From: Candidatus Aenigmatarchaeota archaeon
Lineage (GTDB): Archaea; Aenigmatarchaeota; Aenigmatarchaeia; QMZP01; QMZT01
Direction of reading: 5' to 3'
Assembly (NCBI GenBank): GCA_026397315.1
Contig: JAPLVC010000006.1
Location: 95,975 to 159,974 of the forward strand
DNA: 64,000 bases
The translations under genes and the position numbers were made by a program. Of the stretch, positions 15,555-15,749 are shown piece by piece (the stretch's first letter is position 1; each line of letters begins with the position of its first letter). The notes beneath the pieces were generated by a model. That model was not told the origin of the DNA, did no database searches, and worked only from the letters and a program-made list of their open reading frames with translations.

Positions 15555-15589
15555 CGTTTTCTGCTTAAGCTCTTTCCTAAAGAGCTTAA
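15555..15589 (-). repeat. family-1 hairpin element copy abutting tRNA-Pro 3' end (TTAAGCTCTTTAGGAAAGAGCTTAAGCAGAAAACG on minus)
   Basis: 33/34-nt identity to the first 34 nt of the tRNA-Thr intron at 36807-36841. Confidence 0.55.
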
Positions 15590-15749
15590 TGGGGTCGCTG
15601 AGATTCGAACTCAGGTCGCAGGCTCCCGAAGCCTGAATGCTAAACCATTGCAGAGCCCTTTTCACTTGGAAGCGAAAGCAGCGAAGCGGATTGAAGCTCC
15701 TTTCTGCTTAAGCTCTTTCTTGAAAAGAGCTTAGCTACACCACGACCCC
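15590..15749 (-). tRNA. tRNA-Pro(CGG) interrupted by ~86-nt intron in the D-loop (non-canonical position)
   Basis: Hand-folded: acceptor GGGGTCG/CGACCCC, D-stem GTGT..GCAT, anticodon arm CAGGC-TTCGGGA-GCCTG, T-arm CTGAG-TTCGAAT-CTCAG, discriminator A; insertion between AGC and TGGTTTA of D-loop. Confidence 0.75.

Follow-up and report, generated by a model that had tools for sequence, protein, structure and literature searches.

How archaeal tRNA genes gain introns is the question raised by the stretch of DNA analysed here (the window, 64 kb long), in which one short hairpin module opens tRNA introns and also stands outside them. It comes from the chromosome of an Aenigmatarchaeota-like (DPANN) archaeon; its G+C content is 49%, and among its archaeal core genes are EF-2, MetRS, Cbf5, PCNA, a ribosomal-protein operon and topoisomerase. 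An earlier note on this sequence had described four copies of the module, taken it to define intron starts, contrasted it with bulge-helix-bulge (BHB) splicing and suggested an intron core that spreads or recombines, or else a conserved protein-binding hairpin. The module family gives a lead on intron gain, since a single recognizable module is found at intron starts at no fewer than three tRNA positions and in 16S rRNA, and also outside genes.

The module and its copies in the window

Four matches to the pattern AAGCTCTTT-N2-8-AAAGAGCTT were found in the window (15567-15587, 15710-15732, 27298-27320 and 36808-36828). The hairpin TAAGCTCTTT-loop-AAAGAGCTTAAGCAGAAA thus has four copies in 64 kb, all at the coordinates given by the earlier note, against none by chance (0 expected from 100 dinucleotide shuffles of the window). 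Each of these four Family-1 copies contains the 18-mer AAAGAGCTTAAGCAGAAA without a mismatch (minus 15558, minus 15701, plus 27312 and plus 36820), which sets their orientation as minus, minus, plus and plus. We built a covariance model from 11 gap-free modules, because MAFFT alignments of the modules put gaps inside the stem. Run on the window, the model returned exactly six strong matches (38-57 bits), four of Family 1 and two of Family 2, and in each the sense strand outscored the antisense strand by 18-32 bits; the similarity therefore goes beyond low-complexity A/T sequence. Of the six, three open tRNA introns (Pro, Thr and Ser), another two come 1-2 nt past the 3' end of a tRNA, and the last stands alone. 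A unit combines a hairpin with a perfect stem of 9-11 bp (TAA-N-TTT(T) / (A)AAA-N'-TTA) and a tail rich in A (A[G/T]C[A/G]AAAA), to which a small GGAGC..GCUUC hairpin is often added. Neither the window nor 20 related loci gave a gathering match to a curated RNA family for the module in Rfam 15, which returned tRNA and rRNA only. The features of the window to which the text refers are as follows.

15502..15547, minus: two degenerate half-modules (3' arm and tail only), AAAAGGGCTTTAGCGAAAAACG and AAAAGGTTTATCAAAAAC; covariance model
15554..15589, minus: Family-1 module in the 3' trailer of tRNA-Pro, hairpin TTAAGCTCTTT-agg-AAAGAGCTTAA and tail GCAGAAAACGA
15749-15590, minus: tRNA-Pro(CGG); partial Rfam match, BHB search, folding of the spliced product
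15733..15749, minus: exon 1 of tRNA-Pro(CGG), GGGGTCGTGGTGTAGCT; BHB search, spliced cloverleaf
15648..15732, minus: intron of tRNA-Pro, 85 nt, in the D-loop; fold and BHB search
15697..15733, minus: Family-1 module opening the Pro intron, TAAGCTCTTT-tcaag-AAAGAGCTTA and AGCAGAAAGGAG; covariance model, 38.2 bits
15654..15664, minus: 3'-terminal arm of the Pro intron, UGAAAAGGGCU; minimum-free-energy fold, BHB search
15590..15647, minus: exon 2 of tRNA-Pro(CGG); partial Rfam match, BHB search, spliced cloverleaf
27297..27362, plus: free-standing module with intron-type core (..AAGCAGAAAGGAGCATCGCTCC..GCTTCC); covariance model
36760-36895, plus: tRNA-Thr(GGU); ARAGORN, after removal of the intron plus 6-18 nt of the D arm
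36807..36858, plus: intron of tRNA-Thr(GGU), 52 nt, at 37/38; module match of 56.8 bits
55205..55220, plus: tail-only remnant AAGCAGAAAACGG, 30 nt past tRNA-Gly; weak (11.2 bits, E 2.2)
56635..56669, plus: Family-2 module AAAGCCTTTT-gga-AAAAGGCTTT and ATCGAAAAACGA; covariance model, 49 bits
61130-60981, minus: tRNA-Ser(GGA); spliced in silico, called by ARAGORN as a tRNA-Ser(GGA) cloverleaf
61027..61094, minus: intron of tRNA-Ser(GGA), 68 nt, at 37/38; BHB and spliced product

Outside introns, the trailer module of tRNA-Pro (covariance-model match 15554-15588, 56.8 bits, E 2e-10) begins 1 nt past the discriminator A15590, in agreement with its reported position right after that base. It is identical to the Thr copy (15554-15588, minus, against 36807-36841, plus) over 35 of 35 nt, so that the near-identity described earlier holds and the count given for it, 33/34, was too low. 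The two half-modules follow in tandem, ahead of a downstream ORF that starts at 15490; the model scores them at 20.2 bits (15526-15547, E 0.024) and at a weak 12.6 bits (15502-15522). The free-standing copy at 27297 has on one side the divergently oriented uL4 gene (26395-27210, minus) and on the other a membrane ORF of 78 aa (27431-27667, plus), with an AT-rich promoter-like box directly before it. It is present at the equivalent locus in contigs L086, which is nearly identical to the window around it, L104 and the more distant L061. This copy matches the one in the tRNA-Pro intron at 37 of 38 nt and the similarity extends over about 66 nt, which bears out the roughly 35 nt that the two were said to share. 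The Family-2 module at 56635 begins 2 nt past a tRNA 3'-end fragment (56610-56633, ..ATTCGAATCCCTATCCCCGCA).

Several further observations were made around these tRNA genes. In the leader of tRNA-Gly (55072-55103), a 9-bp hairpin precedes the motif GTCTTTCG, which lies about 10 nt upstream of the tRNA 5' end; this motif recurs in a tRNA leader of L118 (about 2290-2320) and inside several introns. The stretch 55970-56633 has 36% G+C, compared with 49% for the window, and its only ORF has a metallo-beta-lactamase fold (56007-56588). It is flanked by tRNA-Leu(CAA) (55851-55969) and by the 3'-end fragment at 56610-56633, which resembles the Leu 3' end, and it has the appearance of a relic left by an element that integrated into the tRNA gene. 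The intron of tRNA-Leu(CAA) lies at a non-canonical position (55876-55910, about 30/31) and holds CTGA and then GATGATG, a box D-like and a box C-like motif in permuted order that would read C..D once the intron was circularized. A LAGLIDADG-like match of a free-standing ORF at 42775-43518 is weak, its E value of 1e-4 lying at the curated cut-off.

Most of the tRNA genes here escape standard tRNA finders: of at least five complete genes in the window, ARAGORN called one (tRNA-Gly) and Rfam four, and of tRNA-Pro Rfam sees only 15590-15658. A model of the module would aid tRNA annotation in DPANN genomes.

Introns opened by the module and bulge-helix-bulge splicing

A canonical hBHBh' intron has a 4-bp central helix and two 3-nt bulges, and is cut past the second bulge base by EndA. 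Judged by their sequence and predicted folds, the introns opened by the module are regular BHB tRNA introns of the protein-spliced type. The contrast with BHB splicing drawn by the earlier note is not supported, as the introns have a regular BHB with the 5' arm of the module in the outer helix, beside the 5' splice-site bulge. Because this arm fills, and often forms, the outer helix, the module is best seen as part of the BHB and not as an alternative to it. The statement that it defines intron starts is accurate in that capacity and not otherwise.

The tRNA-Pro intron illustrates the arrangement. Its central helix GUAG/CUGC is paired at 4/4 positions, the bulges are CU|A and AA|U, and the outer helix has 11 bp, with the 3'-terminal arm UGAAAAGGGCU, directly 5' of the central' strand CUGC (15653-15650), pairing with the module 5' arm AGCUCUUUUCA (15731-15721). 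An unconstrained fold predicts the same outer helix. The BHB-consistent 5' splice site falls between T15733 and A15732, the exon retaining 'CT' and the intron beginning AAGCTC. The module does lie at the intron start, as the earlier note had it, while the splice site given there was off by 1-2 nt. Spliced in silico, tRNA-Pro(CGG) is a clean cloverleaf in ARAGORN, and its mature D-loop, AGCTTGGTTTA, equals the uninterrupted D-loop of the Pro(CGG) gene of L116. In tRNA-Ser, the intron is opened by a Family-2 module (61096-61062, 48.8 bits) that overlaps the exon bases A36 and A37, and the BHB comprises a 4/4 central helix, CUGG/CCAG, with bulges AA|A and AC|A. The BHB of tRNA-Thr is relaxed and weaker, its central helix UUGG/ACAA being paired at only 3/4 positions, with bulges UA|U and AA|A. 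Here the Family-1 module (36807-36841) starts at the first intron base past GGTA, so that its reported place at the Thr 5' splice site stands, and a second hairpin, AGCAGAA..UUCUGCU, follows. The D arm of the same tRNA has about 12 extra bases (36780-36791, ATTTCGAAGGAA), which could be either a second tiny intron without a clear BHB or a sign of a damaged gene; ARAGORN accepted many different deletions of 6-18 nt, so the borders of the extra stretch are not delimited.

Across the related contigs described below, T-loop introns read stem-TTCG-AA|A..CGGA-AA|T-stem' and D-loop introns GTCT-AG|T..GGAC-AA|N, each with a 4/4 central helix. The BHB search showed that the module 5' arm is able to pair over 8-13 bp with the 3' end of the intron in at least 10 introns, including that of the window tRNA-Pro. 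The exon-side flanking helix is present at T-loop and anticodon sites and absent at D-loop sites. The T-loop introns of L113 and L098 and the Ser intron of the window have no long-range outer helix and only the local hairpin. The 5' arm has two possible partners, the local 3' arm and the 3'-terminal arm of the intron, which makes two alternative folds possible. RNAalifold recovered only the P1 hairpin from 14 introns, as the intron interior aligns poorly; by eye, the GGAGC..GCUUC hairpin recurs in intron interiors.

Judged by sequence, the last four paired bases of the exon and the 3' end of the intron form the 4-bp central helix, and the predicted cut is placed within the 3-nt bulge. The module 5' arm starts right past this bulge and supplies the outer helix, pairing either with the 3'-terminal arm of the intron, which gives a canonical BHB as in tRNA-Pro, or with the module's own local 3' arm. 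The intron would then be removed by the archaeal splicing endonuclease and the RtcB ligase, neither of which is found among the 37 window ORFs scanned against Pfam. At the 3' ends of tRNAs, the helix-linker-helix geometry is similar, and one could speculate that the endonuclease also cuts there; the predicted cut would fall 1 nt beyond the discriminator. Predicted splicing at a perfect BHB in L098 (986-1022) and L113 (866-902) yields an odd mature T-loop, UCCAAAU. This loop puts a C at the normally invariant position 55, and the orthologue in L107 has UUCGAAU.

The module family in related contigs and how it may have spread

Searched for in one genome per species, the bare 18-mer gave 94 matches, mostly in bacterial coding sequence (KELKQK). 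Within the genome collection, the hairpin-bearing copies come from nine archaeal MAGs and no others; three of these MAGs are titled Aenigmatarchaeota and six just 'archaeon', and L086 is one of the nine. A metagenome scan with the hairpin pattern added 35 contigs, 3 of which are chance matches. Viral contigs scanned with the same pattern gave 0 matches, and a viral origin of the module was rejected on this ground. The model searches covered 42 related contigs (about 218 kb), of which 33 (about 175 kb) were re-searched together with the window. The 33 contigs hold 51 modules, or 57 with the six of the window. Since the related contigs were gathered by the Family-1 pattern, the proportion of copies at intron starts carries a bias where Family 1 is concerned, from which the other families are free. 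The hairpin scan and the model searches together revealed a superfamily with different stems and one common design of hairpin and A-rich tail, with these members.

Stem TAAGCTCTTT, tail AGCAGAAA
Stem TAAGCCTTTT, tail AGCGAAAA
Stem TAAGCTTTTT, tail AGCAAAAA
Stem AAAGCCTTTT (Family 2), tail ATCGAAAAACG
Stem TAACCCTTTT, tail ATCGAAAAC
Stem TAAACTCTTTT, tail ATCAGAAAA

Reading the flanks by eye assigned the modules of the related contigs to the following contexts.

Start of a tRNA intron, in the D, anticodon or T loop: about 38 modules
tRNA trailers, 1-2 nt past the discriminator: 6 modules
tRNA leader: 1 module
16S rRNA intron start: 1 module
Directly past a textbook 23S BHB processing stem: 2 modules
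Otherwise intergenic: about 12 modules

To the question whether all copies sit at tRNA splice sites or 3' ends, the answer is that most of those in the related contigs do, the exceptions being the roughly 12 intergenic modules, the two post-23S modules, the one in a tRNA leader and the one in 16S rRNA. Copies without exons are mostly in non-random places, several of them 1-2 nt past tRNA 3' ends or past the 23S stem. The intron sites opened by modules are 15/16-20/21 in the D-loop, 37/38 in the anticodon loop and 59/60 in the T-loop, in many different tRNAs. Arrays of modules occur in L105, L112, L124 and L128 and in the Pro trailer of the window. Copies linked to tRNAs are almost always in sense, the exception being those at the 3' ends of long introns, and intergenic copies are of mixed orientation relative to the flanking ORFs. 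In L112, positions 1-4375 are an rRNA operon. Its 16S 3' region contains two insertions, one of them opened by a module, and its spacer tRNA has both a D-loop intron with a module and a trailer module. A BHB processing stem (..TGAC-AAA.. / ..GTCA-AAA..) flanks the 23S gene of this operon, and two modules come straight after the stem.

Units in trailers and leaders, past rRNA genes and in arrays between genes mark the module as a dispersed repeat; it is no splice signal in its own right. We consider it probable that these are lineage-specific palindromic units of Aenigmatarchaeota that form BHB introns, spread or are homogenized at the DNA level, and persist where they can be spliced. The spread could resemble that of MITEs or REPs or could proceed by gene conversion, and units inside stable-RNA genes would survive only where a BHB permits their splicing out. 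A DNA transposon, gene conversion between copies and an RNA-mediated route are all conceivable.

Comparison of closely related loci is consistent with such spread. L098 and L107 share a syntenic tRNA cluster with exons that are 90-97% identical and a neighbouring coding stretch that is 75% identical, and they differ in their units as follows.

Family-1 intron in tRNA-Glu(UUC): in the T-loop in L098, in the D-loop in L107
Trailer module of tRNA-Val: absent in L098, present in L107
Leader unit of tRNA-Ser: present in L098, absent in L107
Module at the 5' end of an otherwise common 37/38 intron: present in L098, absent in L107

The intron of Pro(CGG) likewise lies in the D-loop in the window and at 37/38 in L116. 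Among three tRNA-Pro genes, the first 65 nt of the intron are identical at 65/65 positions, against 2-3 differences in the 17 positions of exon 1 and 4-6 in the 20 of the intron 3' arm. The presence of modules at several tRNA sites, the change of site between related genomes and the copies outside introns together bear out the description of an intron-core module with marks of spread or recombination. One tRNA of L107 (about 1500-1600, minus) has a 56-nt insertion between direct repeats TATG, which is missing in the L098 orthologue and is not opened by a module.

The stem itself points in the same direction. Across 44 distinct sequences, the P1 stem is 99.8% Watson-Crick, with compensatory double changes at 7 of 10 pairs and 0 one-sided or G-U changes, unlike the central and long-range helices of the BHB, which contain G-U pairs. 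A stem without any wobble pair resembles a palindrome that is maintained as DNA, an argument limited by the alignment having been fitted to the covariance model, which leans to its own structure.

A stronger form of the dispersed-repeat reading may also be considered, though it is less likely than not. According to it, the modules are the ends of a mobile palindromic element that enters stable-RNA genes at the DNA level, and those insertions capable of forming a BHB become new introns. Such an element might be REP- or MITE-like, or might move by hairpin-directed recombination, and its targets would lie within stable-RNA genes or beside them; the BHB of the resulting tRNA or rRNA intron would be formed by the inverted arms of the element together with a handful of adaptor bases. 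Evidence bearing on both forms of the reading comes from the long T-loop introns (142-290 nt) of L103, L080, L100, L042 and L120. Their ends are inverted repeats of 29-60 nt, with the inverted unit copies of L103 reaching 60 nt, and short introns retain just an inverted 3' arm of 11-13 nt. The terminal inverted repeats agree with a MITE, but no target-site duplication accompanies them, as no direct repeats were found at the intron borders, and the 37 window ORFs compared with Pfam include no transposase, integrase or splicing endonuclease. The flanks of the T-loop introns, considered as candidate duplications, proved to be complements with G-U pairs and not direct repeats, which points to selection at the RNA level and not to a DNA insertion scar. 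The adaptor bases that pair with the exon vary by site and use G-U, so these too appear to be shaped at the RNA level. If the mobile-element reading were true, it would provide a first concrete mechanism for the gain and movement of archaeal BHB introns and would show introns, the trailers of tRNAs and the flanks of split genes to be linked through a single repeat family. The shared module at intron starts, its copies outside genes, the inverted ends and the turnover of copies between close relatives make the question of intron gain testable.

It is rather unlikely, but worth weighing, that the module is instead a functional RNA motif, bound sequence-specifically by a protein or a partner RNA and marking the boundary 3' of mature stable-RNA segments. 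A tRNA or rRNA maturation factor would be a candidate for the binding partner, or the excised and possibly circular intron could act as a small RNA. The 35-nt module and the 65-nt core are better conserved than the surrounding tRNA exons, and in the diverged L061 the module is kept at the uL4-proximal locus while the downstream sequence differs. Moreover, where a module follows a 5' exon, a tRNA discriminator or the 23S processing stem, it starts at a distance of 0-2 nt. Strong conservation and a constant sense orientation beside mature RNA ends, the 3' ends of long introns excepted, keep this interpretation alive. Its sequence-specific binding is, however, hard to reconcile with a stem that varies freely among subfamilies by compensatory changes, and the lack of G-U pairs would be unusual for a helix selected as RNA. 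Intergenic copies in both orientations relative to genes, fast turnover of presence and absence between related contigs and the lack of an Rfam family match also speak against it.

We regard as improbable that the module is a transcription terminator, or a hairpin that forms or stabilizes 3' ends, with its presence in introns being secondary. Copies do lie directly past tRNA 3' ends and past the last gene of an rRNA operon, others lie 0-40 nt past stop codons (L114, L128, L105 and L124), and the 5' arm has a run of 3-6 T. That run, however, sits within the 5' arm, the stem is A/T-rich and not G+C-rich, and the tail after the hairpin is A-rich where an intrinsic terminator has a U-run. Terminator function fits some copies, but as a general role it is contradicted by the copies inside tRNA genes, where most copies lie and termination would be harmful, by those at transcript 5' ends past promoter-like boxes (window 27297, L098:1732 and L124:12104), and by those antisense to both neighbouring genes (L105:5825 and L108:2206).

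It is very doubtful that the non-intronic copies flank split or permuted tRNA genes whose trailer and leader pair in trans as a BHB. The trailer modules do match intron 5' ends, the unit in the tRNA-Ser leader of L098 resembles an intron without a 5' exon, and several T-loop copies run off the contig ends (L038, L095 and L122), so that their 3' exons are not seen. Nevertheless, the window tRNA-Pro is complete alone once spliced, the 3' exons of L042 and L120 are present about 290 nt downstream, and neither a T-arm nor an acceptor strand follows the copy at 27297. A leader-trailer BHB around whole tRNAs was rejected for the window Pro and Gly, which show no leader-trailer complementarity. An origin by chance or from low-complexity A/T sequence can be dismissed with near certainty: the stems are rich in T-runs and A-runs and the bare 18-mer in bacterial genomes mostly encodes KELKQK, but shuffles gave none, the hairpin-bearing matches are nearly all archaeal and tRNA-adjacent, and scores rise to 57 bits.

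Relation to known introns and repeats

Introns opened by the module resemble canonical hBHBh' introns in their central helix, bulges and predicted cut position and, in at least 10 of them, in an outer helix that the intron ends can form. They differ in that the 5' strand of the outer helix is a conserved repeat with a second, local partner strand, and several members lack one flanking helix and thus form relaxed motifs.

The units also resemble REP/BIME sequences and MITEs. Like these, they are short extragenic palindromes, single or in arrays and in both orientations, that lie after genes or between the genes of operons; their stem is kept by compensatory changes and some members have terminal inverted repeats. 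The units described here are, in contrast, archaeal, no RAYT or other transposase has been tied to them, none being present among the 37 scanned window ORFs, and we saw no target-site duplication. Unlike REPs, they reside in tRNA and rRNA genes as spliceable introns.

In the split tRNA genes of Nanoarchaeum equitans and Caldivirga maquilingensis, the flanks of the pieces form a helix beside the BHB. The likeness to our case is that sequences flanking tRNA pieces resemble introns and form such a helix; the genes studied here are contiguous, and their trailer copies have no complementary leader partner.

In the literature that we searched, no account was found of this module, its non-intronic copies or introns of Aenigmatarchaeota. 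The 37/38, 59/60 and D-loop sites are known archaeal intron insertion points (PMC4090602), and large-scale tRNA "intron transposition" is known from Thermoproteales (Fujishima et al. 2010, via PMC4090602). As far as that account describes them, the transposed introns resemble ours in that very similar introns occupy different sites, both among tRNAs and among related genomes, a likeness that implies intron gain after species divergence. Set against the same account, the lineage here is DPANN/Aenigmatarchaeota, the conserved part is a defined module of hairpin and tail, and the ends of long members are inverted repeats. A further difference is that copies of the module exist apart from introns, namely in tRNA trailers and leaders, past 23S rRNA and in arrays between genes. 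On the best reading of this evidence, the closest known case is intron transposition in Thermoproteales, of which the module-built introns described here are a variant.
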